From contig OX638380.1 of assembly GCA_951813855.1 (NCBI GenBank), positions 2,050,876 through 2,114,875 on the forward strand: DNA of 64,000 nucleotides, given 5' to 3'. Below, piece after piece: positions 3-49,185 of the stretch. Position 1 is the stretch's first letter; every line of letters begins with the position of its first letter. Under the pieces are notes generated by a model. That model did no database searches and was not told where the DNA came from. It saw nothing but the letters and a program-made list of their open reading frames with translations. The position numbers and the translations under genes were made by a program. Origin of the DNA: an uncultured Verrucomicrobiae bacterium (GTDB lineage Bacteria; Verrucomicrobiota; Verrucomicrobiia; Limisphaerales; AAA164-E04).

Positions 3-1040
3 TGGCATGCAGCTGATGTCGAGAGTTTTTTGATCAATGGCGGAGATCCCGATACCGTGGAGAATCAACGCTGGACGTTATTGCACTGGTCAATCTGGGA
101 AGAGGAAACGGAAATCGTGCGTTTACTGTTAGCGTCCGGTGCCAACCCCGATGCAAGAGACGACGGCAGCTGGACTCCCCTGCATTGGGCGGTTTGGAGC
201 GATCAAGCGGAAATTGTTAGGATGTTGTTAACGGCGGGTGCCGACCCCGACGCTAGTTACTCGGATCAATACAATTCCCTCAACGTGATTATTTCCCGAT
301 ATGCCAGAAATCAAAATGACGGAACAAAGAAAATGATGAGATTATTGATAGAAGCCGGAGCCGACCCCAACACAACGCATGCTGAATATGGTTCCCTTCT
401 CTATCAGGCAGTTGCACGAAACGATAAGGAATCTTTGGTTTATTTACTGGAAAAAAACGCTTCTCCGAACAGTGATTTATTCCCGCCCTTGGCGGTCGTC
501 GACGATCTTGATACCGCAAGCTTTTTGCTGGAAGCGGGAGCCGACCCCACGAGTGGACTAATCCCGGCAATCAAAAAAAGGAAGGTATCCTTGGCACATC
601 TACTGATGGATTCTGGAATTAATCCTAATGTAACAGACTCAGGTGGCCAGACTCCACTTCATGCCATCGTTCAATCTGAATGGCCTACCGGAGAAGCCAG
701 CGAACTTATCCAAAGACTGTCGAGACTCGGTGCCGATTTTAACAGCCGAGATCATTGGGGACGCACTCCCCTGTATTTAGTGTCAAGACGTAATTCGGAT
801 TCCAGAATCGTTTCCCTTCTCCTGGATCACGGAGCGTTAGAAGCCGCTCCCCTGATAACTATTTCATTGAACAATCAAAATAACGTTGTAATCGAATATC
901 ACGGTATTCTTCATTCCAGCGACAGTCTCACCGGCCCTTACGAACGAGTCGATAAAGCCGAATCTCCCTATACCTATGCCCCCGGCGGAAATACCATCAA
1001 ATTTTTTGCGGTGTTTTTCGATACGAGGGGGACTGAGTAA
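3..1040 (+). CDS. Ankyrin repeat protein (5' partial) with a C-terminal non-ankyrin domain
   Basis: Multiple ANK motifs (WTLLHW, GADPDA, GQTPLHA, GRTPLY). The frame is open back to position 3, so the start lies outside the window. The last ~55 aa match the C-terminus of 16085..17566. Confidence 0.9.
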   Translation, partial: WHAADVESFLINGGDPDTVENQRWTLLHWSIWEEETEIVRLLLASGANPDARDDGSWTPLHWAVWSDQAEIVRMLLTAGADPDASYSDQYNSLNVIISRYARNQNDGTKKMMRLLIEAGADPNTTHAEYGSLLYQAVARNDKESLVYLLEKNASPNSDLFPPLAVVDDLDTASFLLEAGADPTSGLIPAIKKRKVSLAHLLMDSGINPNVTDSGGQTPLHAIVQSEWPTGEASELIQRLSRLGADFNSRDHWGRTPLYLVSRRNSDSRIVSLLLDHGALEAAPLITISLNNQNNVVIEYHGILHSSDSLTGPYERVDKAESPYTYAPGGNTIKFFAVFFDTRGTE

Positions 1041-1077
1041 GACAAAATCCCAATTGCCTCCCCATGAAACCGTAATA

Positions 1078-1210
1078 TCAATCTTTGCAAAAGTATTATC
1101 ATAACTAAACAGTAATAAATATGTGGAAATTGTTGAAAATAATATCATCTTATTTGCAATTTTTTTTTGCACTAGAGGTGTCTATAATGACGTGATAGGC
1201 CAATCAACTA
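1078..1210 (+). mobile_element. IS630-family left-end remnant
   Basis: TA-TCAATCTTTGCAAAAGTATTATCATAA matches the left TIR of the intact IS630 at 54292. Downstream TGTCTATAATGACGTG matches TGTCTATAAAGACGTG before the IS630 start codon. Confidence 0.7.
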
Positions 1211-1262
1211 CCCCCCCCCCTGTACCATTTTGGGGCTTGAGAGGAGTAGACCTACCGCCCAG

Positions 1263-1298
1263 TTCCTCCCCGACCCCCCGCGGGGGGTCGGGGAGGAA
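1263..1298. repeat. Perfect 36-bp palindrome in the IS110 left end
   Basis: TTCCTCCCCGACCCCCCG followed directly by its exact reverse complement CGGGGGGTCGGGGAGGAA. Confidence 0.9.
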
Positions 1299-1530
1299 AA
1301 TCTGTCGAATCCAATTGATTCGTGATACTCATGACTTTTCGTTCGAAACGAACGGAATCGGGCCGCAAATCGAGAGTTACCTTACGCCCCCTGTGCCTTG
1401 GAGCACCTGGGGGGACTTGTGCCTCGATTTGTTGGCCACGATCAATGCCCAGTAGAAAGTTTGCGTCTTGGAACGCCAGTACAGGGATTGGCAATCGTCG
1501 TGGCGGCTCGGCACTGACAGCAACCAAATT

Positions 1531-2839
1531 ATGGATCACTATCACTACACCGTAGGAATCGATTGGGGATCGACGAACCATCAGATTTCCCTCATCGATG
1601 CTCAAGGCAAATTATGCGGCGAACGATCCTTCCCGCATGGCGGCCAGGGCCTGCGTGATTCAACCCAATGGATCAAAACTGCCACGAACGCCGCACCGCA
1701 TCAGATCGGGATCGCCATCGAGGTGCCTCACGGCCCGGTCGTGGAAACCATGATGGAATCCGAATTCAAGGTCCACGCCATCAACCCCAAGCAACTGGAT
1801 CGCTTCCGGGATCGGTTTTCTCCCGCCGGTGCCAAGGACGACCGTCGGGACGCTCGAGTGCTCGGAGACGCCCTCAGGACGGACCCGCAGGCTTTGCATC
1901 AACTCAATCCCACCAGCCCTCATATCGTCGTGCTCCGTGATTTATCGCGAACGGCCGAAGATCTCACCGCCTCGAAAACGCAGTTCACCAATAAGATCAA
2001 ACAGCATCTCTGGCGCTATTTCCCCCAGTTTCTGGAATTGGAGCCGGATTTGTCCAAGTCTTGGATCCGCGAACTCTGGGAACGCATTTCCACTCCCGAA
2101 AAAGCCCAACGAATCCGCGTCGGCACCGTAGCCAAACTGCTCGCCCGGCATAAAGTCAGGAAAATCTCCGCCGAGCAAATCCTCAAGATACTGCGGCAAC
2201 CGGCGGCAACCGGCGGTGACCGTCGCCGAGGGTACCGTCGAGGGAGCCATGGGGGCGATCAAAACCGCCTTCAAACAACTGGCCGTGACCATGGAAGAAC
2301 TCAATGCCACGCTGCTGCAGATGGACGAGACGACCGAGAAACTGGCGGTTTCCCTGCAAGCCAACGATCAAGCCAGTTCCCTCGAGGAGGGATCGCCGAC
2401 AACGGACCAGACTCCGGCTCTCAATCAGGATATCGCCATTCTCAGATCAATTCCAGGGGTAGGTCGAATCGTGCTTGGCATCCTGTTGGCCGAAGCTTTT
2501 CATCTGTTCGAAAAACGTGATCGAGCGGCCCTGCGCTGCCTCACCGGAATCGCTCCCGTGACCCGACGCTCCGGTAAACAACATTTCGTGGTTCGACGAA
2601 TGGCGGCTCACCCCCGGCTGCGGGATGCCATGTATCACTGGGCCAGGGTGGCCGTCCAAAGAGACCCGATCAGCAAACGCAAATATGCCGCGCTTCGCCA
2701 ACGGGGACATAAACATGCTCGAGCCTTAAGAAGCGTCGCTGATCGGCTCATCTCCGTCGCTTGTGCCATGCTGCAAAACGGTTCCCTCTACGATCCTTCG
2801 CTGGAACAGGCAACCGCCTCTAACCGATCGAATGACTGA
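1531..2839 (+). pseudogene. IS110 transposase, frameshifted
   Basis: DEDD RuvC-like N-terminus (GIDWG, IAIE, KDDRRDA) and C-terminal Transposase_20-like region (IPGVG, GIAPVTRRSGK) lie in different frames. A 10-bp duplication GCGGCAACCG x2 (2193-2212) explains the shift. Confidence 0.9.
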
Positions 2840-3243
2840 TGCCAACCGATTCCGGATCATCATCCCATCAATCTCGGCTCACCATGGGCCTCGGCAATAA
2901 CCCAAGCCAACGGCATTCGATGAAACGGACTGCCGGCACCTGCAGCATACCAGCCAATCCGCGATAGCAATCGCCTGATGTTAGCTCTATCCGAAAATCT
3001 GAAAATCGGGCTGAAAAACCCCTTGAAAATGGTAGAAAGTCCCCCCTCAATCCGCTCGCCTCGTCAGAATATCTGGTTTGCCGCAATATGAATTAATCGA
3101 ACGTTTGAAACGAGTAACCTAAATCCAAATCTGGCCTCCAACTGAATCGGCCACCGAATGAAATTCAGGAAGGTTTCTGGGTGCTCCGGTGCACCCGACT
3201 GATCGCGATTCGATTTCGACGGACGACCGATGAACCGGCAGGT

Positions 3244-5988
3244 TCAGTCCGGTGACAAAGGAGTGATGCGCACCGGGCAAACCTTGAGTTCCGCCGTTTC
3301 GGTAATCGGATCGTAACCGGAACCGGTAAGCACATTAATGGGAACGTCGTTGAAGCTAAAACTCGCGAACACCGTGCCCCGGGGAGAGCGATCGGTAAGG
3401 TTGACCTGAATTTTGATGCTGCCCCTGGCACTGCTCAATTCGCACCAATCGCCTTCACCCAGACTCCAATCGCGAGCGTCCTCAGGATGAACCTCGAGCG
3501 CTTCCTGAGCCAAGAGATAACTGATGCCTTGGGCTCGACCGGTCTGGGTGCGCGTATGGTAAGCCTGAAGGCGGCGGCCGGTAGTCAACCACACTGGAAA
3601 CTCCTTGGAAATCGTTTCCGCCGGATCACGGTAACTGATGATGCGGAAGAGCCCGCGACCGTTCTTGAATTTTCCTTCATGCAGCACTGGAGTTCCCGGG
3701 TGACTCTTGTCCGGAACCGGCCAATGATATTCGCCCTGATCGATCCGTTCCCAGTCCAGCCCGGCATAAATCGGCGAGACGCTGCATAACTCGTTGAATA
3801 CCTCTTTAGCCGATTCGAACTCGAACCCGGGAACGCCCAGTCGTTGCGCGATGCGACTGATTATCCACCAATCGGGACGAGCCTGGCCAACCGGAGGAAC
3901 GGCGGCCCTAAGTCGTTGAACTCTTCTTTCGGTATTGGTGCAAACGCCGTCGGTTTCGCCCCAAGCCGTCGCCGGCAACACCACGTCGGCTAGTTCGGAA
4001 GTTTCGGTCGGAAAAATATCGATAACGACCAGATGGTCCAACGAACGAAGCGCCCGTTCGCAATGCGCCCGGTCTGGGTCGGAAACCAAAGTGTTCTCGC
4101 CGTCGATCAACATGGCCCGGATAGATTCGCCGCACCGATTAAGCGCCGTCACTTTGGTGATTCCTTTGGCCGGATCGATTTCCCGACCGTAAAGCTTGCG
4201 GAACTTTTCCTGAAACACCGGATCGGTCACGGGCTGAAATCCGGGATAATTGGACGGCACGGCTCCTGAGTCTCCGGCGCCCTGAATGTTGTTCTGTCCG
4301 CGCATCGGATTGATCCCGGTACCTTCCCGGCCGACGTGGCCAGTCATCAACGCCAAATTGCAAAGACTCTGCACGTTGTCCACGCCGCAGATATGTTCGG
4401 TAATGCCCAAGGTGTAGTAGATGGCCGCCCGCTCGGCTTTTCCGTACCAGATGGCCGCCCGCTCGATATCCGCCGCCGGCACTTCGGTAATTTCCTCGGC
4501 CCACTCCGGCGTGAATTCTCGGATATGCTCCAAAAACTCTTCTCCTCCCGCCGTGCGATCGGCGATGAATTCAGGATCGATCAGATTTTCCCGGGCGATG
4601 ACCTGACTCATGGCCAACAACAGAGCGACGTCCGAGCCGACCCGAATCGGTAAATAGAGATCGGCCATCTCCGCCAACGGGATTCTTCGAGGGTCGGCGA
4701 CGATCATCCGGGAGCCCCGGCGAAGCGCCTTCTTCACTCGGGTAGCGGCCACCGGATGGCACTCGGTCATGTTGGTGCCGATGCAAAAAAACACGTCGGG
4801 CTTTTCCATATCCGCCAGAGGATTGGACATAGCTCCCCTGCCGATCGTGGCTGCCAGACCGGCAACCGTAGGCGCGTGTCAAGCACGGCTGCAATTGTCG
4901 ATCTGGTTGGTGCCGAAGCCGGCGCGAACGAATTTCTGCATCAGGTAATCGGCTTCGGAAGGCGTTCGCCCCGAAGCGATTCCATACACGGCACGTTCGC
5001 CGTAGCGGTCGACGACCCGGCGAAAACCTCCAGCCGCGAGATCCAAAGCTTCTTCCCAATCGGTTTCGTGAAGACGACCGTCGGCCCGACGTACCAGCGG
5101 CATCGACAATCGCTCCTTATGCTGGACGAAATCGAAGGCGAATTGCCCCTTGATGCAGAGCGCTCCTTGATTGGCCGGACCGTCCATCGCCGGTTGAACG
5201 CCCACCAAACGATCGCCCTTGGTTAACGCGTCTACCGAACACCCCACCCCGCAATAAGGACAAATCGTACGGGTTTTCTCGATCGCTCCGGGTAACGATT
5301 CGGCACGCATCGCCTTCCGGTCGCCCAACGCTCCGGTCGGACAGGTCTGAACGCATTGACCGCAAAAGGTGCAGGCCGATTCCTTCAGATTTCCGGCAAA
5401 CTCGGTGATAATCTGAGTGCTGAATCCTCGTCCGGCGATATTGATGGCGTGATCGCCTTCTTGTTCGGCGCAGACACGCACGCAACGATAACAAGAGATG
5501 CAACGATCGTAATCGCGCAGGATAAACGGATTGTCGTCCTCGAACCGCGACCGCCCCGATTGCCGTCCCCGAAACCGTCCTTTGGTCACTCCGTAACGGT
5601 CAGCCAAATCGGAAAACTCCCGGGAAGCGTAACCGCGCAAGGGATCGACCGCTTCGTCCGGGTTCTCCGAAGCGACCATTTCGAGCAAGATCTTCCGATA
5701 ATCCTCCAGTTCCTCGGTATCGGTCCGCACCGCCATGCCCGGGGTAGCCTTGACCGTGCAGGAAGCTACCGGATGGCGCGCTCCTTCGACTCGAACCAGA
5801 CAAAGACGACAACCGCCGAAAGGCTCCAAGCGCGGGTCGTAACAAAGCGTAGGAATCGACTTGCCGCAACGACTGGCGACTTCGTAAACGGTCTCCCCCG
5901 GATCAAAGGCAACCTGCTCCCCATCCAAAGTCATCCGATGGGTCCGACCGGCAGTAGATCGATTCGTCTCGGAAATGACGGAGACCAT
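3244..5988 (-). CDS. fdhF: Selenocysteine-containing formate dehydrogenase alpha subunit (Mo/W-bisPGD) with N-terminal Fe-S domains
   Basis: ORFs 4879..5988 and 3244..4830 are in one frame, joined by a TGA at 4879-4881 in NCSRA-U-HAPTVAGL, the FdhF active-site position. Also CPYCGVGC cluster motif, LCIKG and RGQNNIQG. Confidence 0.93.
4849..4867 (-). promoter_or_regulatory. Bacterial SECIS element
   Basis: GGUUGCC-GGUCU-GGCAGCC stem-loop starting 11 nt after the UGA, closely resembling the E. coli fdhF SECIS. Confidence 0.85.
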
Positions 5989-6006
5989 GGCTGTTACCCT
6001 ACCTTT

Positions 6007-7680
6007 TCAGCTATCCCGCTGCACGTGTTTTCTGACTTGCCGGGGAAAGTGCTTGATCAGACTTCGGGTGATGTTCGGCGCCGCCATTCCCAGACCGCAA
6101 GCGCTGGCTGCCATCATGACCGATTCCAGATCGGCCACCTCCTTGTTCCACGATTCCCAATCGTCCGGACCACCTCCGTTATCCAACCGTTCAGTCAGCC
6201 GCTCGGTTCCGATGCGGCAAGGAAAGCACTTGCCGCAAGATTCTTCCGCGAAAAAAGCCATGGCGTCGTGAGCGGCGGACACCATGTCGCGCGTCTCGTC
6301 GTAAACGATAATCCCGCCCGCTCCCAGAAATGAACCCTTGCTGCGAATCGAAGGTTCATCCAGCGTGACCTCCAGATCGTCTCCCGCCAAATAACCGCCG
6401 GAAAGTCCCGCCATGGTCACCGCTTGAACGGCCCGACCGGCCGGCACGCCTCCCGCCCAGTCGTAGAGCAACGTTTTCAACGGCAACCCGAAGGGCACTT
6501 CGTAATTGCCCGGCCGGCAAATGTCTCCGGAAAGACTGATAAGCTTGGTGCCCGCGAATTCCCCTAGTCCCAAACCCCGGTACCAATCGGCTCCGCGCCG
6601 AAGGATCGGTGCCACGGCGGCTAGCGTCTCCACGTTATTGACCACGGTTGGGAGATTGTCGTAACCATGAGTCACCGGAAAAGGTGGGCGGTTACGCGGA
6701 AACGGATGTTTGCCCTCCAGGGAATTTAACAACGATCCTTCTTCTCCGCAAATATAAGCTCCAGCGCCGCGACGCAGCCAGAGTCGAAAACTGAAATCCC
6801 GGCCGCCGATTCCATCGCCGAGCCAACCGGCGTTCTCGGCTTCTTCGATAGCCCGTTGCAACCGATCGAAAATCTGCGGATATTCGTAACGCAAATAGAT
6901 GAAGCCCCGAACCGCGCCCGTAGCGTAAGCCGCGATCAACATTCCCTCGATCACGGCATGCGGATCGTAATCCAGAACAGCTCGGTCCTTGAAACATCCG
7001 GGCTCGCCTTCGTCGGCGTTGCAAACGATCGTTTTGGGTTCGCCCGGAGCGTCCGCGACCGCCTTCCATTTATTTCCGGTCGGAAATCCCGCTCCGCCCC
7101 GTCCCGCTAGTCGACTGGCGACGATCAGTTCGTTCACTTCGCCTGGGGTTAGAGAGGTCAACGCCTTTTCGATCGCTTGATAGCCGCCTCCCCGGCAATA
7201 ACCTGCCAAGGTGTTTCGTCCGGGTTCTCGGATGGCGGCGAACACACACTCTTCCTGATTGCCGGGATTAGGATCCGGGAGCGGTGTCGGCCGATTTTCG
7301 AGCGAGCCGTCGGACCGTCCAACCAACGCCCGCTTCCCCTGCAATACCGGGATCGGATCGTCGCATCGGCCGGCACAAGCCATGGCGCTCCCGCCCTCGA
7401 GCGAACGGACCAATCGGTCACCGCCCCGCAAACGGCAAACAGCCCCCGTGCAAATCCGCGGCGCGGTTTGACCGGGCGGAGCCAACAAAAAATGATGATA
7501 GAACGTGACCGTGCCGTACAGCTCGGCCAACGGAATCTTCAGCGCCGCCGAAACGTCGCGAATGACCTCGGCGCTCAACCAGCCGTCACGATCGTGAAAA
7601 GCATGGAGAACCGGAAGCAACGGAGCAGGTTCCTCCCTCCACTGATCGATGATCGCCTGATTACCCGCCGCCGTATCCAC
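6007..7680 (-). CDS. NuoE-NuoF-like fused diaphorase subunit of an NAD-dependent formate dehydrogenase
   Basis: N-terminal 2Fe-2S Cys pairs (CTGAVC, CAGRC); LAGRGGAGFPTG, NADEGEPG, GAGAYICGEEGSLLNSLEG, ESCGKCFPCRIG motifs; directly upstream of the FDH alpha gene. Confidence 0.92.
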   Translation of the reverse strand: MDTAAGNQAIIDQWREEPAPLLPVLHAFHDRDGWLSAEVIRDVSAALKIPLAELYGTVTFYHHFLLAPPGQTAPRICTGAVCRLRGGDRLVRSLEGGSAMACAGRCDDPIPVLQGKRALVGRSDGSLENRPTPLPDPNPGNQEECVFAAIREPGRNTLAGYCRGGGYQAIEKALTSLTPGEVNELIVASRLAGRGGAGFPTGNKWKAVADAPGEPKTIVCNADEGEPGCFKDRAVLDYDPHAVIEGMLIAAYATGAVRGFIYLRYEYPQIFDRLQRAIEEAENAGWLGDGIGGRDFSFRLWLRRGAGAYICGEEGSLLNSLEGKHPFPRNRPPFPVTHGYDNLPTVVNNVETLAAVAPILRRGADWYRGLGLGEFAGTKLISLSGDICRPGNYEVPFGLPLKTLLYDWAGGVPAGRAVQAVTMAGLSGGYLAGDDLEVTLDEPSIRSKGSFLGAGGIIVYDETRDMVSAAHDAMAFFAEESCGKCFPCRIGTERLTERLDNGGGPDDWESWNKEVADLESVMMAASACGLGMAAPNITRSLIKHFPRQVRKHVQRDS

Positions 7681-7972
7681 CGGTTCAAAAAAGGTGAGGC
7701 CGCATCGTGACAGCCTGCCCGATCGATCGCAAGCCCATTCCGGGTTCGCCGCCTCGGATTACGGACCCATTTTGCCGCCAGTCTGAAATCGGGAATGCCC
7801 GACCGTTCCGACCGCTTGACTCGGCGGAAGATACTTTCGGTCCGCTGACAGTTCGAACACGATACCAAGCCGAGTTCGTACCGCCGCCGATCCAATGACA
7901 AAAACCAAGCTTGGCCCGGATCGAAAGTTCCAAGCCAAGCTCGCGTAATTTGCCTGCCCAGCAACCCGCCGA

Positions 7973-10096
7973 TCAACGTTCGGAGCGATTCTTGACCGCC
8001 GCGGCTTTAGCGGAAGGATTCTTGATCAACAGCTTGATCACGTCCATTTCCTGTTCGAGGTCCCGATCGCCTAGGGCAGTCATTTCCGCATTGAAGTGCT
8101 TGCGAAACTTTTTGAATTCCTTGCGGAAAGGTTGAGACACGTACAAGGGGATCGAACGCCGTTCCCACTGCCCCAACGAGGGCCGAGGACCGTGTCCCGG
8201 CCAAATGGCGATTCTGCCCTCTTTCGGTTCGGGTTCGGGTCTCGGCCGCCAAAGAATGGGACGCACCACCGGCCGTTCGTTTTCATAACTATACCGTTCC
8301 TCCTGAATCCAACTTCTCAAGAGATTAGCGTATTGAACCAACAGCACTCCTTTACGGATCCCGGAATGATCGAAATGCGTCTCGGTTTCCCGGCGCATTT
8401 TCACTTCCGATCGATTGTCGAATTTCTTCCCCTTCCGATTTTCATAACCGACCGCCAGCTTTAGAGTCTGATTCTTTACGGCCTCGTTGCGCGACAGTTT
8501 CAACAGGATCAAGCCCCCGCGAGTCTTCCCCTCCTCCGTAGGCGAAGGAAAGAGGGTGTTGACCCGGAACACTTCCCCGGTAGCCGTATCGGCTTCGGGA
8601 GAACCGTACACCTTTTCGATGCTCCAGCCCTTGCCCGCAAGTTTTAGCCGAAGATCGAACACCAGCGGCGTCACCATGTAGTCGAAATACTCGTCCAAGC
8701 GTTTGACGAACTCCTTGGGCGAGTGAACCGAATAGTAATTGGCGCCGCGATTCTTGGTGATGCTCTGAATCAAATCGGAATTAAAATCGACGCCCACGCC
8801 GATTACCGTCGAATAAATGCCCCGAGCGGCGTTGTCTTCGATCATGCCGAACAGTCCTTCCCGGCGGGTTTCCCCTTGGTTGGGCATGGCATCGGTGACG
8901 AAGATAATCCGATTCTCGCTGACTTGCGGATCGATCTTTCCCAGTTCGGAAAATTGCCGGGTCGCCAGCTTCATTCCGGCCGACATTTGCGTACCGGAAG
9001 AGGCTCGGAGGGCCTTGATTCGTTTCCGCAGCGCCTTCATATCGAGACTGTCGACTTTGGCCAGGGGCTGGATCGTCCGAGCCTCGTTGTTGAACGTGAC
9101 GATCGCGACGCGATCGTCCGGTTGCAGATGCTTCGTCAAGGCGGTCGCCGCCCGGATCGCCACCTGGATTTTCGCCGTTTCCGCTTCTTCCTCGCTCAGT
9201 TCGCGGCGCATCCGGCCGTCGTAATGGTACCGGTTGAAGGCGCTTTTCATGGAACCGGAAACGTCCATCACCAAGACGAGATTCAATTGCTTTCGCTCGA
9301 ACTCGTCCTCCTGAACTCCCGAATTAAGTCCCACCGAAAGGTAACGCTCGATTTCCCCGGAAAGCGGGTTTTTGACGACGGCTTCGGAGTATGAAGCGCA
9401 AAACAACTGATCACAGGGCTCTTCCTCGCCGGTTTCGAAAAAATAGTCATAGAACAGGCCTTCGAAGGTCACGTCGTCGGTCATCGGCAAATAGTCGTTC
9501 TCGATATTCTGGCGAAAATTGCCGACATCCTTCGCGCCGCCTACCGCAAACCCCAGCGACGCGGACTTGGCGCTAGGCGCCGCCGCCGCATCGAGGGAAA
9601 AAGACCTGCGCTGCAACTGCAAACTTTCCGCCTTGAACCGGGGCGCGGGCTGGCGTCCCAAGCGTTCGTTCAACGAAGCCCTTCCCCGCGCAGCGTCCGT
9701 TTCCGGGACCAACGGCTGCGCCAGCTGCAAGGCATCCGACACCTCGCCCGAGCGATCGGCGAAATCGGTCAAGTTCAAACCGACCAGATTCGCGCCGGTT
9801 AGTTTCGCGCCTTCCAGATTCGCACCCTCGAGGCGAGCCGCCCGTAAATCGGCACCTCTCAAATCGGCACCCCGGAGATTAGCTTGGCGCAGGTCGGCGC
9901 CCGATAAATCCGCGTCCCTCAAATCGGCGCCCGACAGATCCGCACCCACCAAGTTGGTCGAAGAAAGATCCCTTCCCGAGAAATCGACGCCCGACAAATC
10001 CTGGGCGGTGGTTCCGCTTAAGCACCACATGGCACAGCCGACCACCCACGTTCCCCAAACCCTCCGGTTCCAACCCAACCAATCAATCCCTTCCAT
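7973..10096 (-). CDS. Secreted pentapeptide-repeat plus von Willebrand factor A domain protein
   Basis: Signal-like N-terminus, ~15 A(D/N)Lxx pentapeptides and a MIDAS motif (MDVSGS...GT...FVTD). Start moved to the ATG at 10096 (purine-rich RBS) because the longer ORF overlaps iscU antisense. Confidence 0.82.
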
Positions 10097-10366
10097 TGTC
10101 GTTCCTTTCCTCACCAGATACTGACATTTGATCCGTCTTTCGATCCTAAGACAATCTCGTTTCCAATTACTTAGACGCATCAATCGGAAAAATGTTAGCC
10201 GATCGATTCCTTCGCCGGGCGGCCTCCTCCCTGGATCTCCTTCCGGGACCGGAGCGATTCCGGATCGGCGATCCCGGGCGCTGGCCATTTTTTCTCGCCC
10301 CGAAAGCGTCCGTACTCCACCATGACGAGAGACGGGAACGTCCGCAACCCTTCGGTGCCGACTGTC

Positions 10367-10861
10367 ATGAACGACGACTTTCAGAAACGCGTGGAGCAAT
10401 CCATCAAAAACCCCCAAAACATGGGGGAGATGGCCGACGCCGACGCCGTGGGGTCCAGCGGCAGCCCCGGGTGCGGCGACATGATCCGGCTTTGGCTCAA
10501 ATATCGAACCGACCAGGGAAAAAAAGTCATCGATCGAGCTACCTTTCAGTCTTTCGGTTGCGAAACGGCAATTGCCGCGGCCAGCCTGGCTACGGAGTTG
10601 ATCCGGGGGAAATCTCCGGAAGAAGCGGCTCGAATGCCCGGCACCGAACTCGCCGCCGAATTGGGTCCCCTCCCGCCCACCAAAATCCATTGCACTCAAC
10701 TAGTCGAGGACGCGCTGCGCGCCGCCTTGAAAGGACATTCCGAACCGACCGCCGAAACTCCCAAGGCCCAGCCCGCTAGTCTCTCGGATAGCCTCAACCC
10801 TCAATCCCTGCCGGAATCCGGACGCAAACTCGTCTTCCTGGATCAAGATCCGAAGCGATAG
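10367..10861 (+). CDS. IscU/NifU-N family Fe-S cluster scaffold protein
   Basis: [22 protein letters not shown] motifs. Confidence 0.88.
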
Positions 10862-10904
10862 CTTATTCTTGAATATCCGCCGGTTCGGGGACAATCTGCC
10901 GCTT

Positions 10905-11978
10905 ATGACCAGTTCGATGCCTGTTCGGTTCCGCGCCCTCCTTGCCGCAGCTTTTTCCGCGGCGCTCGGAATCTCCGCTTTCGCCGCCAATCCTCAGGTC
11001 ACGATGAAGACGACGCTCGGGGATATCGTGCTGGAGTTGGATGAAGAAAAAGCGCCGATCTCCACGCTGAATTTTTTAGAATACGCCCAAAGCAAATTCT
11101 ATGAGGGCACGGTTTTCCACCGCGTCATGCCGATTTTCATGATCCAAGGCGGCGGCTTTACGAAAGACATCGACAAAAAAGAAGAAGGCCTGCGGCTCCC
11201 GATCAAAAACGAATGGAAAAACGGCCTCAAAAACGTCAGAGGCACCATCGCCATGGCTCGGACCGGCGAACCCGATTCCGCGACTTCCCAATTCTACATC
11301 AACGTGGTCGACAACGCTTCTTTGGACGAGCCTCGGGGCGGCGCCGCTTACGCCGTATTCGGGAAAGTGATCAAGGGCATGGAAACGGTCGACGCCATTC
11401 GCGATACCGAAACCCGGATCCATCCCAAGTACCCGGGAGGCAAAGTCGTTCCGGTAGTGCCGGTCGTCATCGAATCGGTCACGTTGAAGGCCCCCTACGA
11501 CCTCACGGCGCTCAAGAAAAAAGTCGAAGAGATCCGTCAAGCCGCCGCCGCTTCCGCAACCCAAAGAATCGCCGACAACGAAGTCTTTCTGAAGGAAAAC
11601 GCCCAGAAGCCGAACGTCATCACCACCGCTACCGGGCTGCAATACGAGATTCTCGAAACCGGCAACGACCGCAAACCCGAACTCACCGACACGGTAAAGG
11701 TTCACTATCGGGGAATGCTGATCGACGGCACAGAGTTCGACAGTTCTTATCAACGGAACCGACCGTTAACTTTCGGGGTCAACCAAGTGATCCCCGGTTG
11801 GGCCGAGGCGTTGCAGTTAATTTCCGAAGGGAGCAAGGTCAAATTGGTTTTACCTCCTGATCTGGCCTACGGCGAAGCGGGCGTCGGCGATGTAATTCCC
11901 CCCAATTCCACTTTGATTTTCGAACTGGAGTTGCTGCAAATCACTTCGCGGCCGCCGGACGAAAACGCCCAACCGTGA
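10905..11978 (+). CDS. Exported dual peptidyl-prolyl isomerase: cyclophilin plus FKBP fusion
   Basis: Signal peptide; cyclophilin motifs (FHRV, MIQGGG, GTIAMAR, SQFYIN); FKBP motifs (VKVHYRG, FDSSY, VIPGW, LAYG, IPPNSTLIFELEL). Confidence 0.92.
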   Translation: MTSSMPVRFRALLAAAFSAALGISAFAANPQVTMKTTLGDIVLELDEEKAPISTLNFLEYAQSKFYEGTVFHRVMPIFMIQGGGFTKDIDKKEEGLRLPIKNEWKNGLKNVRGTIAMARTGEPDSATSQFYINVVDNASLDEPRGGAAYAVFGKVIKGMETVDAIRDTETRIHPKYPGGKVVPVVPVVIESVTLKAPYDLTALKKKVEEIRQAAAASATQRIADNEVFLKENAQKPNVITTATGLQYEILETGNDRKPELTDTVKVHYRGMLIDGTEFDSSYQRNRPLTFGVNQVIPGWAEALQLISEGSKVKLVLPPDLAYGEAGVGDVIPPNSTLIFELELLQITSRPPDENAQP

Positions 11979-12847
11979 ATCCCTGCCGAAGCGCCATACT
12001 AGGAGCCGTTCTCGCCCTGCTTTGGTGCCCGGAACCGCGAGCGGCCGCGGATCAGGTTCCGCCGGTGCGCGCTTCCTTGATTTGCGAACAGAACGCCGTC
12101 GTTCCCGGCCAGACGTTCACCGTCGCCTTGCGGCTGCGGATGGCTCCCGGCTACCACACGTATTGGCGCAACGCCGGAACGATCGGCCTGCCGACATCGA
12201 TTCGCTGGACGCTCCCCGCCGGTTTCAAAGCCGGCCCAATCCAATGGCCCCGGCCGCAAATTCATCACATGGCGGACTACCGGGTCTGGGGCTACCAAAA
12301 CGAATCTCTGCTCTTGGTCGACATTACTCCGCCCCCTGATCTCCCGCTCGGGCATCCAACGAAACTGATAGCCGACGCCAGTTGGATGGCATGCAAAAAC
12401 CTGTGTCATCCGGGCTTTCGGCAGTTGGTGTTGACCCTGCCCGTCGCCGAGCGGAGGTCGCTTCATCCGGCACGAAACACTCAATTCGATCGAGTTCGCC
12501 GCCAGCAACCCGTCGCCCTGCCCGAATGGCAACTGTCCTGCGTTCGCAACGGCGCGAATTACCGGCTATCGATCGTCTCCGCCCGCCCGATTCCGCAAGC
12601 CGATATCCGGTCGGGCGCCATCGAATTTTTCGGTTTTGACCGACAGATCAGTTCCGCCCTGCCGCAGACGATTCGCCGCCTGCCTAACGGCTGGGAATTG
12701 ACCCTGCGCCAGGAAGAGTTCACTCCGGAACGAACAGACCGGCTTACCGGCATCCTGGTGTCCGAGCGAGGTTGGAAGACCGAAGAGCCGCAACGCCCGC
12801 TGCTGGTCGATATTCCGATCGAAACCTCATCGGCGACCGACCGTTGA
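11975..12847 (+). CDS. DsbD N-terminal-like domain protein (exported)
   Basis: Signal peptide, GYHTYWRN-G-IGLPT-I-W motif, WMACKNLC dithiol; 4-bp overlap with the upstream gene. Confidence 0.75.
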   Translation: MNPCRSAILGAVLALLWCPEPRAAADQVPPVRASLICEQNAVVPGQTFTVALRLRMAPGYHTYWRNAGTIGLPTSIRWTLPAGFKAGPIQWPRPQIHHMADYRVWGYQNESLLLVDITPPPDLPLGHPTKLIADASWMACKNLCHPGFRQLVLTLPVAERRSLHPARNTQFDRVRRQQPVALPEWQLSCVRNGANYRLSIVSARPIPQADIRSGAIEFFGFDRQISSALPQTIRRLPNGWELTLRQEEFTPERTDRLTGILVSERGWKTEEPQRPLLVDIPIETSSATDR

Positions 12848-15156
12848 AATCGCTGTTCCGCTTCCTGATCGTCGCCGTCCTTTGCTTTGCGGGCGTCATC
12901 GGAATCTGGTTCGTCTTTCACTGGTGGCCGCCCCGCGAGGCATCCGGCGATATTCGCCCCGGGAAAATTACCGCCCCGCCCCGTCCCGATTACGAAGCCG
13001 AGGCCGCCAAATGGAATCGAACCGTCTGGGCTTCCGAAATAAAGGGGCAAAAACTGGCCGAGCGAATCTGGCGACTCTGGGACGAACTGCGTCAAAGCGA
13101 AACTCCGTTGCAAGTCTTGGCCGATCTCCCCTTCGACCAGTTGACGATCGGATCGTTTTCCTCCCCCCAAACCATCGAGCACGGAATCGTCATTCGCGAA
13201 ACTCAGGAACCCGCAACGACCTATTCGAGAAAACGATTCCAGGAATTTCTGACGCAACGGCGCCGGGAAAACATCCGGCTAGAACAGTCCCAATGGCGCC
13301 ACGAACGTTTCTGGCCCGAAAGAGACGGCGTTCCCCAATCCCGTTTTCGCTTTGTATTGCACGCTCGCCGGCCAGAGCCGGAAACCCGCTATATTCTCCG
13401 GGGTCGGCTTCGCATTCGCTGGCGCGAAACCGACGCCCGGCCCGCTATCGAAACCGTCACCGTAACCGAAGCGGAATTACTGTCCCGCAAGGGACCTCCG
13501 CCGTTCCTGAGCGTTCCCCCGATCGATATCACCCCCGACTCGGTTTACGACACGATCGAACCCAATCTCTTGATCCAGGACCTGGACCGCGACGGGCTTG
13601 CCGAAATCGTTTTACCGTCGATCAACCGCGTCTACCGGAACCAGGGGCAGGGACGATTCCGTCCCGCACCTCTACTCGAGTTCCCGATCCGCCCCATCGA
13701 TATCGGCACGCTGGCCGACTTCGACAACGACGGGTTCACCGATTTCCTCGGCGTCAACACCAAGGGACTCGCCCTATTCCGAGGTTCGGCAACCGGGACG
13801 TTCCTTTCACCGCTGTCCAGCACTCCCCTGGAATCGTTGCGGCACCCTTCGGCGCTCACTTCCGGCGATATCGATCATGACGGCGACCTCGATTTATGGC
13901 TGGCCCAGTATCGCAGTCCCTATCGCGCGGGCCAGATGCCGACTCCCTACTACCGGGCGAACGACGGTTACCCTTCCTATCTCTTGCGCAACGACGGCAC
14001 CGGCCGGTTCGTCGACGTTACCGAAGAAGCGGGTTTGACCGAACTCCGGTTTCGCCGAACCTACAGCGCTTCCCTCGTCGATCTGGAAGACGACGGCGAT
14101 CAGGATTTGGTGACGGTAAACGATTTTGCGGGACTGGATTTTTACGTGAACGACGGAACCGGCCGTTTCCGGAACGCCAGCGACGAATTGGCCGGCGACC
14201 GCTTGGGCTTTGGCATGGCCCACGCCTTCGGCGATTTCGATCGGAACGGGGAACTCGATTTATTCATGATCGGAATGAACGACGATACGGCTCGCCGACT
14301 GGACTATTTGAAGCTGACCGGCCCGCGCCCCGAGTACGCGCTCCATCGCGCTCCCATGACTTTCGGAAATCGACTTTTCTATCGTCAGGGAGCCCGTTAC
14401 CACCAACTTCCTGCCGGAAAACGCTTAGCCGAAAGCGGCTGGTCCTGGGGAGTGTCGACCGGTGATTTCGACAACGACGGAGACGAAGACATTCATATCG
14501 TGAACGGCCACATCTCCAACGCTTCCGTCCGGGATTACGCTCCAAATTTTTGGCTTTACGATATCTACTTGGGCGATTCGAACGAGAACCCCGCCCTCGA
14601 CTTCTTTTTTCAATCCCGGCAAAACGACGCCCGGCTTTCGGGAGTTTCCTTCGGCGGCCATGAACTCAACCATTTCTACTTGAATCGAGGACAAGACGGC
14701 TTTTTGGAAGTCGCCTATCTGATAGGGCTGTCGCTCCAAGTCGATTGCCGCAACTTGATCAGCGAAGATTTGGACGGGGACGGCCGACTGGAATGGCTGA
14801 CCGCCACTCTCGAAACCTGGCCCCAGTATCGGCATACGTTGCGACTATTCGCCAATTTTACCGAACCGGCCGGGCACTGGATCGGGCTTCGGGTCGTCGG
14901 CGCTCCCGAACTGCCGATCGTCGGCACTGTGGTCCAATTAAAAACTCCCAACGGCGAGCAACGGCGCCAGCTCGTTACCGGCGAGTCCTACCGTAGCCAA
15001 CATGCCAACGCCTTGCACTTCGGCATCGGGCCGCTCACGGAGGTCGACTCTCTGGAAATTCGCTGGCCCGACGGCGGCCGGCGCACTCTGGACCGTCCGG
15101 AAATCGATCGGTGGCACCAAGTCGTACACCGTCGGTCGACGACCGGGAATCAATAA
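12844..15156 (+). CDS. CRTAC1/ASPIC-UnbV family protein with FG-GAP repeats
   Basis: Repeated DFDNDG/DIDHDGDLD motifs; C-terminal GESYRSQH..LHFGIG..IRWPDG; N-terminal TM segment. Confidence 0.88.
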   Translation: MKSLFRFLIVAVLCFAGVIGIWFVFHWWPPREASGDIRPGKITAPPRPDYEAEAAKWNRTVWASEIKGQKLAERIWRLWDELRQSETPLQVLADLPFDQLTIGSFSSPQTIEHGIVIRETQEPATTYSRKRFQEFLTQRRRENIRLEQSQWRHERFWPERDGVPQSRFRFVLHARRPEPETRYILRGRLRIRWRETDARPAIETVTVTEAELLSRKGPPPFLSVPPIDITPDSVYDTIEPNLLIQDLDRDGLAEIVLPSINRVYRNQGQGRFRPAPLLEFPIRPIDIGTLADFDNDGFTDFLGVNTKGLALFRGSATGTFLSPLSSTPLESLRHPSALTSGDIDHDGDLDLWLAQYRSPYRAGQMPTPYYRANDGYPSYLLRNDGTGRFVDVTEEAGLTELRFRRTYSASLVDLEDDGDQDLVTVNDFAGLDFYVNDGTGRFRNASDELAGDRLGFGMAHAFGDFDRNGELDLFMIGMNDDTARRLDYLKLTGPRPEYALHRAPMTFGNRLFYRQGARYHQLPAGKRLAESGWSWGVSTGDFDNDGDEDIHIVNGHISNASVRDYAPNFWLYDIYLGDSNENPALDFFFQSRQNDARLSGVSFGGHELNHFYLNRGQDGFLEVAYLIGLSLQVDCRNLISEDLDGDGRLEWLTATLETWPQYRHTLRLFANFTEPAGHWIGLRVVGAPELPIVGTVVQLKTPNGEQRRQLVTGESYRSQHANALHFGIGPLTEVDSLEIRWPDGGRRTLDRPEIDRWHQVVHRRSTTGNQ

Positions 15157-15207
15157 AACAGTTGGACCGGACTTCCGGAACGGTCTGGCAAAAATCCCTT
15201 GTTTTTC

Positions 15208-15560
15208 GTAACTGACCAGGTGACCGGGGCCTACCTTTTTCCCGGTAAAAACGGTGATTGTCGTCCCGGGAAAGACCAGAGCGAAGGCCTCGCAATCAAT
15301 CAGTCATCAGTTTGCCGGCCAACTCTTCCGAGGAAATTCGCAAGGTCGATAAGACATTCCATCCCGGTTTTCAGTCGTGCTGACCAATCCGCGCTCCGCC
15401 AGATTTTTCGTGAAGGGAATCGCCCAGTCGAATACGGAACTGAGCGTGCCCTCTCGCTTCTCTTGCAACCGCTCAACCAGATTATGACCGGGGCGTTTTT
15501 TCGGCGGCCCCGCTTGCCGAACAGCGATGAGTCCGTTACTCGATGGGCTAGATGGCACCG
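15208..15560 (-). mobile_element. Degenerate IS66 remnant (transposase C-terminus and terminal repeat)
   Basis: GTAACTGACCAGGTGACCG at 15208 resembles the IS66 TIR GTAACTGTTCAGGTGCCG. The minus frame encodes KKRPGHNLVERLQEKREGTLSSVFDWAIPFTKNLAERGL, homologous to the IS66 C-terminus at ~61.9 kb. Confidence 0.8.
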
Positions 15561-15823
15561 CCGGGGACACTGCGTCCGACAACCTACCGGACCTGAATTT
15601 CCGAGTGCCATTCGGCATCTACGGGGACCGGTTCCCCCACAATCGGGACAGACAGTGGAATGTCGCACCTCAACGTGGTCCGATCGGGAAACAACAAGTT
15701 CTGCCTATTGTTCAATAAGCACTTGTGATAAATGGGCAGAACTAGGTCGACGGACTATCGCCAGCAGCCCAAAAGAAATCGAAACGCTTGATTTGGCCCG
15801 CGACCTTCCATTACAGAAACTGA

Positions 15824-16036
15824 TTCTCCCGATATTCGCTTCGTGAGACACGAACAGGTACGGTCGCCATCACAGACGCTACGCTTGCTTCGGAATTTGA
15901 TATCAAGGCGTTGGATGCCGACAAAAACGAAGGCAACTCAGAAGCTCCCCACACTGAGGTGACGGCCATTGCGGCGGGATTCGCTTACGCAGCAGCATTG
16001 AAATCTGACGGTTCCGTTGTCGCTTGGGGAAAATGA
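15824..16036 (+). pseudogene. Fragment of a Calx-beta/RCC1-repeat gene
   Basis: A start-less frame encodes FDIKALDADKNEGNS (Calx-beta start) and EVTAIAAGFAYAAALKSDGSVVAWGK (one RCC1 blade). Confidence 0.7.
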
Positions 16037-16084
16037 AATTACAACCTACTCATCAGATTCTGTCCGACAAGATCGACGGGCACT

Positions 16085-17566
16085 CTAACGGGAAATAAAA
16101 AACATCGAGTCCCTGTCGGGCGACACCAGAAAAGGCGAATTTGCGGCGGCGACCGGAACGAATCGTTCGGTCACGCTCTTGCTGGCATATAACGATCCAG
16201 AGTACTCAATTATCATGAAGCCGTCGCTGTTAAGCGACACCGAGATTGGACGGGACGGCAGCAACGTATCGTCGTTTCGAATGATTCCTTGGGCCTTGGC
16301 CAAAATCTCCCCGCTTCGCTTCGTTTCTCCCTCGATGACCTGATGCAAGGCTACGAAAAATAATTCGTCAGGTTCGATTTGAAGATCGCCTTTCACGTTA
16401 ACGATCAAGGATTTCGTTTTTTCCCCGGCTTCAAGGGAAACGATCTGTCCGTCCCCGGATTGAATTTCGACGAACAGGTTAAAGTCCAACTCCGCCGAGA
16501 TAGCGGCGACATTGTTCGGGACTTCAAAACCCTGGTCCCACTGTTCGAAATCGGCGTCGCCCCAAATTATCACCGTGCGATCGCTTTTTAAGGCGAGACT
16601 ATGGCGTTTACCCGCCAAGATAGCGATGACATCGCTCAGTCCCTCCGGCACCTGGAGTTGTCCGAAATCGTTCCTGCCCCACGCCACCACGGTGCCGTCC
16701 TGTTTCAGAGCGAGACTAAATCCTTCGCCGGCCGGGATCGCCTTCACGTCCGATAATCCCTCCGGCACCTGGAGTTGATGAAAAACTTTCAGTCCCCAAG
16801 CTATCACCGTGCCTTCCCGTGTTAGAGCGAGGTTGTGCCATCTGCCCGCCGAGATAGCGACGATGCCGGTCAATCCCTCGGGCACTTGAAGTTGTCCATA
16901 ATCGTCATCTCCCCATGCCACCACCGTGCCGTCTTTTTGTAACGCGAGACTCACGATGTTTCCTGCCGAAACGTCGGTAACGTAGCGCAATCCCTCGGGT
17001 ACCTCGAGGCGTCCGTGATCCCCGTCGCCCCACGCCACCACCGTGCCGTCTTTTTGTAACGCGAGGCTGTGCCAAAATCCCGCTGAGACCACGACGACAT
17101 CACTAATCCCTCGAGGCACTTGAAGGGGTTCGTCGTCGGAAGAACCCCAAGTCACGACCTTTCCGTCGCTAGTCAAAGCCAAACCATGAAATTTACCGGC
17201 CGGGATAGCGGCGATTTCGCCCCGAACCTGGGGCGCCTGGTGTCGCTCTGATCCGGTTTTGCTCCAAACCCGAATGTGCGACAGCCGATCCGATTCCAGC
17301 GAAAAATCTTCGAAATCGGCCAGGTTTTTTTCCCGACCCAAATTATCGAGAACCAACCGCAGTCGGACCGCTTCGGTCAGGTCCTCGGTCCGATTGACCT
17401 GAAAACTAAAAGCCGTTAAACCCTCGTGTCCCTCATACTTATCGGCTTCGTAAGGGATCAGGCTCCAGTCGGCAACCGCGCCGGAATAAATTTCCAAAGC
17501 CAAAACGCCAATTTGTAACCGCACGATTGCCAGCAAATGAAGAACCAGGGTTCGACAATTGGTCAT
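16085..17566 (-). CDS. Secreted RCC1/BLIP-II-like repeat protein with a split Calx-beta domain and shared C-terminal domain
   Basis: Six full ~39-aa repeats (AISAG..HSLAL..DGTVVAWG) plus one partial; Calx-beta halves (EADKYEGHEG..FSFQV.R and EAGEKTK..VKGD...EPDE.F...GIIRNDD) flank them. Confidence 0.88.
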   Translation of the reverse strand: MTNCRTLVLHLLAIVRLQIGVLALEIYSGAVADWSLIPYEADKYEGHEGLTAFSFQVNRTEDLTEAVRLRLVLDNLGREKNLADFEDFSLESDRLSHIRVWSKTGSERHQAPQVRGEIAAIPAGKFHGLALTSDGKVVTWGSSDDEPLQVPRGISDVVVVSAGFWHSLALQKDGTVVAWGDGDHGRLEVPEGLRYVTDVSAGNIVSLALQKDGTVVAWGDDDYGQLQVPEGLTGIVAISAGRWHNLALTREGTVIAWGLKVFHQLQVPEGLSDVKAIPAGEGFSLALKQDGTVVAWGRNDFGQLQVPEGLSDVIAILAGKRHSLALKSDRTVIIWGDADFEQWDQGFEVPNNVAAISAELDFNLFVEIQSGDGQIVSLEAGEKTKSLIVNVKGDLQIEPDELFFVALHQVIEGETKRSGEILAKAQGIIRNDDTLLPSRPISVSLNSDGFMIIEYSGSLYASKSVTERFVPVAAANSPFLVSPDRDSMFFISR

Positions 17567-48042: not shown

Positions 48043-49185
48043 ATGAAATCTTCGACTCAAACGCTCGTTACGCTGCTCTTTTCGATCCTCCTCTGGGTTC
48101 CGTCGTCCCACGCCGAAGACCCCGTCGTCATTCGCAATTCGGATATGTTTAACCAAGTAGGCCAGTATTATCGAGCCTACCTCAACGCCAGAGGAGACAG
48201 CCTGCTTTCCGGAACCAGGGAAACCGTACCGGTCCGCCAACTGATCGGCGAACCCGGCGGGCCCCATCTCTGGGATTTCTCCGAAGGTCCTACCGACGAT
48301 ACGATCCGGGTGGATTACGTTAATCCTCAAGGCACGGTGCCGGGCCACTTTTTTCCGAATATCGAATTTGCCGAACGCATGCAATTCGAATCCAACGGCG
48401 AAACCAAATGGCTGATGATCGAGCAGAAACCCTTGATCGGGCGGAAAGTCTACGGTTTTTTCGACCCCACCTGGGACGATTTGGGAGTCGTGTTCAACAC
48501 TGCGATCGTCGATTTTCCCGATCCCATGCGTTACGGCGACAAATGGTCTACCACGGTAGCGTTTCAATCGGCGCTTTCGGTGCTGGGGTTCGAAACTCCG
48601 GTGAGATATACTAGCGTGTCCGAATTCGAAGTGGACGGCTGGGGCTATATCAATCTCCCCGAGCTAGGTTTCGGCGACGTTCTCCGGGTCAACGAAAAAG
48701 TCACTGCCACCCAAGCGATCCGGTCGGATTTCTTTCCCTCCACCGGAGACGGCGATGGTGAGGACAACGTCAGTTTTACCGACCTAGGCAAAACCATTCA
48801 CCGCAATCTCTATTTCTTCCGCCCCGGCTTCGGTCTGGTCGCCGAGATCCATTCGACCACTTCCGAGGCCGATCCCGGCTCGAGTTTTTCCGACGCGCTG
48901 TTCTTCAGCCGCATGTTCGAAACCAACCGGGAACCGTCCGTCGGTTGCCAGGAACCTCAGGCCGCGGGCAATTTAGTTCTGTCCTATAATGCCGGACGAG
49001 TCCTGCTGAAATGGGACACGGCCGATTGCACCGACTCCTACCGCGTCGAGTACTCTTCTCGAGGAGGCGTTCCCGGATCTTGGAACCTTCTGGAATCGAC
49101 CCAAAGTACTTTCATCGTGGACAATCAAGCCTTACAGGACGCATCCCGGATTTACCGAGTAATCTCCGTTCTATCTCAACCCTGA
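48043..49185 (+). CDS. Secreted hypothetical protein with a C-terminal beta-rich (FN3-like) domain
   Basis: Signal peptide (..VPSSHA); C-terminus LVL..LKW..YRVEYS..W..L..RIYRV. Confidence 0.75.

Follow-up and report, generated by a model that had tools for sequence, protein, structure and literature searches.

A 64,000-nucleotide stretch from an uncultured Verrucomicrobiae bacterium (contig OX638380.1, positions 2,050,876 to 2,114,875 of the forward strand; hereafter the window) encodes two otherwise unrelated proteins, one made of ankyrin repeats and the other of an RCC1-like beta-propeller, that have in common a C-terminal module of about 55 residues, which we call the tail. The window's first open reading frame (ORF) lies on the + strand, is open from base 3 to a stop codon at 1038-1040, and encodes 345 aa that end in APLITISLNNQNNVVIEYHGILHSSDSLTGPYERVDKAESPYTYAPGGNTIKFFAVFFDTRGTE. 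The RCC1 ORF occupies 16085..17566 on the - strand and encodes 493 aa ending in SRPISVSLNSDGFMIIEYSGSLYASKSVTERFVPVAAANSPFLVSPDRDSMFFISR. Their features are as follows, with scores from a hidden Markov model (HMM) of the tail family and, where given, the predicted local distance difference test (pLDDT) score of a structural model.

3..845, + strand: ankyrin-repeat passenger, the C-terminal 281 aa of a 457-aa protein whose N-terminus falls outside the window (Pfam Ank, Ank_2 and Ank_4, E 1e-31 to 1e-36).
846..1010, + strand: tail module of the ankyrin protein (PLITISL...IKFFA), family HMM positions 2-56, 74.5 bits.
1011..1040, + strand: atypical extension (V FFDTRGTE) past the canonical end of the module, and TAA stop; pLDDT about 55, disordered in the model.
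16088..16255, - strand: tail module of the RCC1 protein (RPISVSL...MFFISR), family HMM positions 2-57, 69.9 bits; its stop codon is at 16085-16087.
16529..17221, - strand: RCC1-like beta-propeller repeats, the passenger (residues 116-346; Pfam WD40_RLD 2e-49, RCC1_2 1.6e-48).
17477..17566, - strand: hydrophobic segment at the N-terminus of the RCC1 protein (MTNCRTLVLHLLAIVRLQIGVLALEIYSGA), positive by a hydropathy heuristic with a mean Kyte-Doolittle value of 2.6.

When aligned with each other, the two tails are identical at 21/62 positions (34%), with no internal gaps and E=6e-11 in a pairwise BLASTP comparison with compositional adjustment. A leave-out HMM, built from 56 tails of other organisms with both window tails excluded, was run against the 931 six-frame ORFs of the window; it found the ankyrin tail at E=2e-20 and the RCC1 tail at E=2e-19, and the next best score was E=0.6. 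Because of these BLASTP and leave-out HMM scores, we consider the homology of the tails confirmed as real and far beyond chance. It was located as claimed in an earlier reading of this DNA (the original prediction), several details of which came out differently. Both proteins were said to end in a terminal FF, and neither does: the RCC1 protein ends FFISR and the ankyrin protein runs 8 residues on (FFDTRGTE). The label RCC1/Calx-beta was correct in its first half, the propeller matching WD40_RLD at 2e-49, and failed in its second, the Calx-beta match (Pfam E=0.063) being below cut-off. The product of 48043..49185 had been proposed as a more distant relative of the two tails; it received no score with two HMMs, and hhalign gave a probability of 4.9%. 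This protein (48043-49185, + strand) carries a signal peptide and has no Pfam or NCBIfam match, and its C-terminus (..LLKWDT..YRVEYSS..GSWNLLE...) has the look of an fn3-type module.

When 1.84 billion cluster representatives were searched exhaustively with HMMER and a profile made from just the two window sequences, 178 proteins matched at E<=1e-3. The original prediction had called for such a search, and the large family that it uncovered is in its favour; word-index homology searches with the tails returned nothing, or only 7 short fragments. Among the 150 best matches, 137 contain a single strong match (>=25 bits), and the rest include NHL-repeat and other false positives as well as tandem-type relatives in which each copy scores lower. 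The family consensus consists of a linker enriched in Gly, Ala and Pro, followed by I-S-V-x-L-x-DG-x-VVIEY-x-GTL-x-SA-x-SVTGP[YFW]-x-x-V-x-GA-x-SP[YF]-x-V-x-P-(5 residues)-F[FY]-[IR]-A-[ERDQ]-stop. Positions with G, L and P are invariant, and others with G, V, A and S are conserved at >=90%.

The module ends no more than 10 residues from the C-terminus in 128/150 best matches and no more than 30 residues from it in 143/150. The seven that lie further in comprise four false positives, two true internal modules and one tandem-type protein (P0144), which itself terminates in another divergent copy. In 122/125 members the protein stops 3-6 residues past the final aromatic pair, typically with the endings IAE or IAR, and the FFISR-stop of the RCC1 protein is a canonical family ending. 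Genomic sequence gave the same picture. We collected 49 tail-bearing ORFs in 41 loci, and in 45 of the 47 with an intact 3′ end the last profile position falls 0-2 residues before the stop codon. The expectation that matches would nearly always be C-terminal was thereby borne out.

Curated libraries contain no model for this sequence. In scans of 58 diverse members at E<=1, and of the two window proteins, no Pfam or NCBIfam model corresponding to the tail was found, and Ig, fn3 and other known internal domains did not match it, in line with what had been predicted; the lone marginal match was to Big_6 (E=0.043, 1/58 tails). A sequence-profile search of the PDB gave spurious matches only. The best of these, clitocypin, was rejected, the alignment being out of order. 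Targeted literature searches found no description of the family.

A hydropathy and charge heuristic assigned a signal peptide for the general secretory (Sec) pathway to 34/40 of the genomic ORFs with a complete 5′ end; four further ORFs of the same 40 have signal peptides that are obvious by eye (for example MQRTNRFSVLSGLLGTALAFSANA), for a total of about 38/40. In 38 full-length members the Pfam domains include PA14 (15), Laminin_G_3 (14), Ig_3/I-set, Big_5, GLEYA, CBM9, F5/8 type C, pentaxin and fn3, and judged by this domain content the passengers are of the extracellular lectin or adhesin type. The normal architecture is a Sec signal peptide, an extracellular-type passenger (PA14, LamG, Ig, CBM9, F5/8C or cadherin-like), a linker enriched in Gly, Ala and Pro, the tail and the stop codon, which agrees with the earlier forecast of signal-peptide proteins with varied passengers. 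Neither a 'choice-of-anchor' nor any other sorting-related NCBIfam domain was present in the 38 full-length members. Matches to TafC, ZirU and Amuc_1099 in these proteins were far below cut-off, and the one TafC match that could be located lies inside the passenger and outside the tail.

The RCC1 propeller protein fits this architecture. Its N-terminal segment is a probable signal peptide or signal anchor on the strength of its hydropathy, atypical in that an Arg interrupts the hydrophobic core. The number of propeller blades in this protein (16529-17221, - strand) differs between strains: metagenome variants (P0002 / L003-L006) are shorter by exactly one 39-aa repeat (454 vs 493 aa), and over the rest of their length they are about 99% identical to the window protein. 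The kind of passenger is itself exceptional. Since none of the other 148 of the best 150 matches has an Ank or RCC1 passenger, these eukaryote-like passengers are peculiar to this organism, and the proposal that the tail is a tag for eukaryote-like repeat proteins does not describe the family. The organism has ordinary family members too, because the same 4.89-Mb chromosome that contains the window encodes an 1153-aa protein (P0004) with a signal peptide, Ig, Big_5 and LamG domains and a tail, and the tail is also borne by a neighbouring LamG protein of 688 aa in a close strain. Strain variants stood in for the window RCC1 protein and for P0004, for which exact look-up gave no record.

All 41 genomic loci belong to Verrucomicrobiota (metagenome-assembled genomes, or MAGs, of Pedosphaera sp., SCGC AAA164-E04 and others), and so do all named members obtained from cluster look-ups (Verrucomicrobiales, Limisphaerales). 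Narrow patterns alone recovered at least 8 tail loci from a single Pedosphaera MAG and 10 or more from the MAG HM.1. The MAGs that contribute the 41 loci are related, which makes the loci non-independent. As predicted, then, the family looks lineage-specific, as far as sequence sampling goes; its restriction to Verrucomicrobiota is not proven, because the patterns used in the genome scan were subfamily-specific.

The genes that recur beside tail genes are those for FG-GAP_3/UnbV_ASPIC, TPR, sulfatase, S9 peptidase and GDSL lipase proteins. FG-GAP_3 plus UnbV_ASPIC ('CRTAC1-like') genes flank tail-bearing LamG or PA14 genes in 16/41 loci (L008, L012, L027, L030, L032, L035, L036 and others); most often the two genes run in the same direction, 100-300 bp apart, and a TPR gene frequently accompanies them. 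The FG-GAP/ASPIC and tail genes may constitute a conserved surface-protein gene cluster. A gene of this type adjoins the RCC1 gene in the window as well:

12772..15156, + strand: FG-GAP_3 / UnbV_ASPIC protein (Pfam), convergent with the RCC1-tail gene.

Among sequencing runs, none that was clearly labelled RNA was found to hold the genes.

AlphaFold2 models of the tails were made with the family alignment. The ankyrin tail was modelled with a pLDDT of 85.8 and strands at residues 5-9, 15-19, 22-26, 34-35, 43-45 and 53-57, its last 8 residues being disordered; the RCC1 tail model reached 88.2, with a core above 94. In these models the tail is a small, fn3/Ig-like beta-sandwich of 5-6 strands that is predicted to fold autonomously.

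What was observed directly is a folded domain that closes varied, Sec-exported passenger proteins at their very C-terminus and is present in many paralogues per genome and, so far, in one phylum. A targeting role would be in keeping with how C-terminal sorting or anchoring domains work, and the last domain of the Akkermansia protein Amuc0953, described below, is a precedent for it. By analogy with such domains, we infer that the tail may be a post-Sec envelope-targeting or surface-retention domain, a reading to which we give an even chance. Tail-bearing proteins would first be exported by Sec; the tail would then be recognized at the cell envelope, and would either guide the protein through or onto the outer membrane or keep it on the cell surface. 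[quoted passage not shown] If such a pathway exists, the tail would predict the surface proteome of the phylum, and the organism studied here would use it to display its RCC1 propeller, and perhaps its ankyrin protein, on the surface. Export of tail proteins to a host, as the original prediction had entertained, is pure speculation.

Several results weigh against a targeting role. Tandem modules exist: P0003 has two, and P0006, P0058 and P0144 have arrays of several (2-5 copies overall). In two true members, P0021 and P0126, the module is internal. A domain for binding or spacing would explain this pattern better than a signal for export alone. No specific secretion, processing or translocation machinery recurs beside tail genes in the 41 loci and about 500 kb of flanks; co-occurrence with one was among the checks named in the original prediction. 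Foldseek comparisons of the models with the PDB were not significant (best E=0.4) and produced generic fn3/Ig-like matches only. Signal peptides were judged by heuristic and by eye rather than with SignalP, and the narrow, subfamily-specific patterns of the genome scan bias the taxonomic picture. Finally, the ankyrin protein, in its full-length variant, has an N-terminus (MLRSQSDVQLELAKAVQDSDATRV...) with no hydrophobic segment and no signal peptide. The proposal of an export tag has thus been sustained in part: the module is terminal and sits on signal-peptide proteins, but the ankyrin protein lacks a signal peptide and some relatives occur in tandem.

The main competing explanation sees in the tail a generic fn3/Ig-like terminal domain, structural or ligand-binding (a stalk, a cap, or a carbohydrate- or protein-binding unit), with no sorting role and merely a tendency to come last in large extracellular proteins. 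The fold comparisons (fn3, titin and cytokine-receptor domains, TM-scores 0.35-0.49), the Pro-rich linkers between modules of the tandem relatives and the lack of dedicated machinery in the neighbourhoods all agree with it, and the conserved G, L, GP, V, A, SP and FF resemble core and turn positions. It accounts less well for where the module is found. Ordinary Ig/fn3 spacer domains occur anywhere in a protein, whereas the last profile residue of the tail is 0-2 residues from the stop in 45/47 genomic cases, and flexible linkers join it to unrelated passengers in many paralogues per genome. Nor did any Ig, fn3 or Big model match at E<=1, the Big_6 score in 1/58 tails excepted. For these reasons we rate a purely generic domain as possible and on the unlikely side, the most serious of the alternatives that concern the family as a whole.

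A separate explanation applies to the ankyrin protein only. A near-identical strain variant (P0001) provides the full-length protein of 457 aa, which starts MLRSQSDVQLELAK. Its TTG start is the first possible one after an in-frame TAA 39 nt upstream, within an AT-rich leader, and because of this in-frame stop the protein cannot have a signal peptide. It also has no linker, the last repeat continuing directly into the tail, and the protein extends 8 residues (FFDTRGTE) beyond the canonical family end. Because of these three departures (no signal peptide, no linker and the additional residues), the ankyrin tail may be a recent product of domain shuffling, possibly non-functional or re-purposed. 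In its strongest form this explanation holds that, in a recent recombination, the 3′ end of a tail gene became attached to an intracellular ankyrin gene, leaving the tail as a non-functional or decaying relic. An IS110 transposase gene lies 430 nt downstream, the window is rich in transposases, and no other Ank-tail protein occurs among the best 150 matches. On the other side, the tail still scores 67-75 bits with all of the most conserved positions kept, and the gene is intact, with an identical tail across several metagenome samples. We place a relic on the unlikely side and still regard it as a serious possibility. Such a fusion is compatible with any reading of the function of the family, the envelope-targeting role included.

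Far less probable, in our view, is that the tail is a divergent homologue of the CTD (C-terminal domain) that Bacteroidota T9SS substrates carry, and that tail proteins use a T9SS-like machine for export. They share with T9SS substrates the order of Sec signal peptide, varied passenger and, at the very C-terminus, a beta-sandwich. T9SS CTDs are not known to occur in tandem, which counts against kinship. Among PDB structures compared with the ankyrin-tail model, the CTD of RgpB (5hfs_A) had the highest TM-score (0.60/0.60, probability 0.63, E>1), followed by fn3, titin and ERAP1 domains. With the RCC1-tail model, the better of the two, fn3 domains lead the list and 5hfs is at rank 15 (TM-score 0.43, E>1). 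The fold kinship that had seemed promising with the first model was therefore not reproduced with the second, and all Foldseek E values are above 0.4. The CTD is likewise an Ig-like beta-sandwich, with seven strands (PMC4804311), compared with 5-6 predicted strands in about 55 aa for the tail. A 2026 paper offers a precedent, in that the last domain of the Akkermansia muciniphila sulfatase Amuc0953 resembles a T9SS CTD in an AlphaFold 3 model, and it was suggested that this verrucomicrobium may have a 'comparable system' (PMC13524802). No Pfam or NCBIfam model, those for T9SS tails included, matched the 58 tails at E<=1, and neither the window nor about 500 kb of locus flanks showed anything like the T9SS machinery (SprA/Sov, PorV, PorU, PorK-N). 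In the portions of the literature available to us, the T9SS is described as restricted to Bacteroidota or to the Fibrobacterota-Chlorobiota-Bacteroidota (FCB) group. Taken together, the models do not support a specific kinship of the tail to the T9SS CTD. Chance or compositional bias as the source of the similarity, which only the shortness of the module could favour, is refuted by the compositionally adjusted BLASTP value (E=6e-11), the leave-out HMM (E~1e-20) and more than 130 independent members.

Other features of the window were recorded in passing. A formate-dehydrogenase-like molybdopterin oxidoreductase alpha subunit (3244-5988, - strand) is represented by two in-frame ORFs split by a single TGA (4879-4881) within the motif NCSRA-TGA-HAPTVAGL. 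Because the TGA occupies the position of the active-site Cys/Sec, it is, from the sequence, probably a selenocysteine codon and not the mark of a pseudogene. Transposases are dense (1468-2520, 20542-22329, 51828-53339, 56971-59337 and 60365-62134) and include the IS110 gene beside the ankyrin gene, two IS66-family genes and a Tn5-like gene fused to a DruA-like domain; the two further ORFs at 20542-22329 are presumed, from sequence only, to be transposase-related. This density points to mobile elements being active in the genome. At ~1210-1300, in the gap that separates the ankyrin gene from the IS110 transposase, a run of C is followed by a G/C-rich inverted repeat (cctccccgaccccccgcggggggtcggggagg), which could be a terminator or the end of an insertion sequence (IS) element. 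A 908-aa protein with pentapeptide repeats and a von Willebrand factor A domain (7973-10699, - strand) adjoins genes for a cyclophilin-FKBP fusion peptidyl-prolyl isomerase and a DsbD_N protein.

Time and again a conserved C-terminal tag has been the lead to its sorting machinery: LPXTG to sortase, PEP-CTERM to exosortase and the CTD to the T9SS. Verrucomicrobiota include abundant marine polysaccharide degraders as well as Akkermansia, and the tail may bear on how members of the phylum bring their many large proteins of lectin-like or glycan-degrading type to the cell surface. A family that is strictly terminal, abundant in each genome and outside Pfam and NCBIfam provides a handle for profiling partner machinery, for predicting surface proteomes from MAGs and for reporter experiments. 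If the tail should be merely structural, the gain would be limited to a new domain family, useful in itself.

Compared with known systems, the tail is close in arrangement to the T9SS CTD (RgpB CTD, PDB 5HFS; Por_Secre_tail / TIGR04183). Both occur at the extreme C-terminus of Sec-signal-peptide proteins with unrelated passengers, and both are small all-beta sandwiches that follow a flexible linker and have many paralogues per genome. They differ in that the curated sequence models (Por_Secre_tail and the NCBIfam/TIGRFAM sorting domains) give no match to the tail, and in that the tail is shorter, has 5-6 strands and not 7, exists in tandem copies and belongs to another phylum, one from which no T9SS has been reported. 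In T9SS substrates a sortase-like peptidase removes the CTD once they have been translocated. The final domain of Amuc0953 (PMC13524802), which its authors propose as a signal for the 'comparable system', is a small beta domain too, in last position on a verrucomicrobial surface-located enzyme; the PDB profile search with the tail returned no Akkermansia chain at E<=10. Domains of the fn3/Ig-like class (fn3, Big_x) have the fold class in common with the tail, with Foldseek TM-scores of 0.35-0.49 to titin Fn3, a Clostridium Fn3-like protein and cytokine receptors, and a further likeness is that relatives of the tail can stand in tandem. They differ from it in sequence profile, in length, the tail being about half as long as is usual for them, and in lacking its strict terminal placement.

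Four further systems resemble the tail in position or in the proteins that carry them. The PEP-CTERM/exosortase signal, which is common in Verrucomicrobiota, is also a lineage-enriched C-terminal tag on secreted proteins with many copies per genome. It is made up of a short motif, a transmembrane helix and a basic cluster, whereas the tail is a folded soluble beta domain with neither hydrophobic helix nor motif and no NCBIfam match. Substrates of type I secretion have no N-terminal signal peptide, keep their C-terminal signal uncleaved and usually carry RTX repeats, whereas the tail family nearly always has a Sec signal peptide and no RTX, the ankyrin protein being the only tail protein for which the absence of a signal peptide was noted in this comparison. 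The outer-membrane protein (OMP) beta-signal, as in autotransporters, belongs to a C-terminal beta-barrel with an aromatic last residue, as opposed to a sandwich of ~55 aa in which the stop follows the aromatic pair by 3-6 residues. Surface-anchor modules (SLH, LysM and cell-wall-binding repeats) behave like the tail in their distribution, being terminal on varied exported proteins, occasionally duplicated in tandem and lineage-specific; they have no sequence or fold relationship to it. The tail fails every sequence-based defining feature that was tested for T9SS CTDs, PEP-CTERM, type I secretion signals, OMP beta-signals and fn3/Ig domains. It is a family of its own, in no curated library: C-terminal beta-sandwich tags are known as a kind, and the phylum and the sequence family in which we find this one are new to the record.

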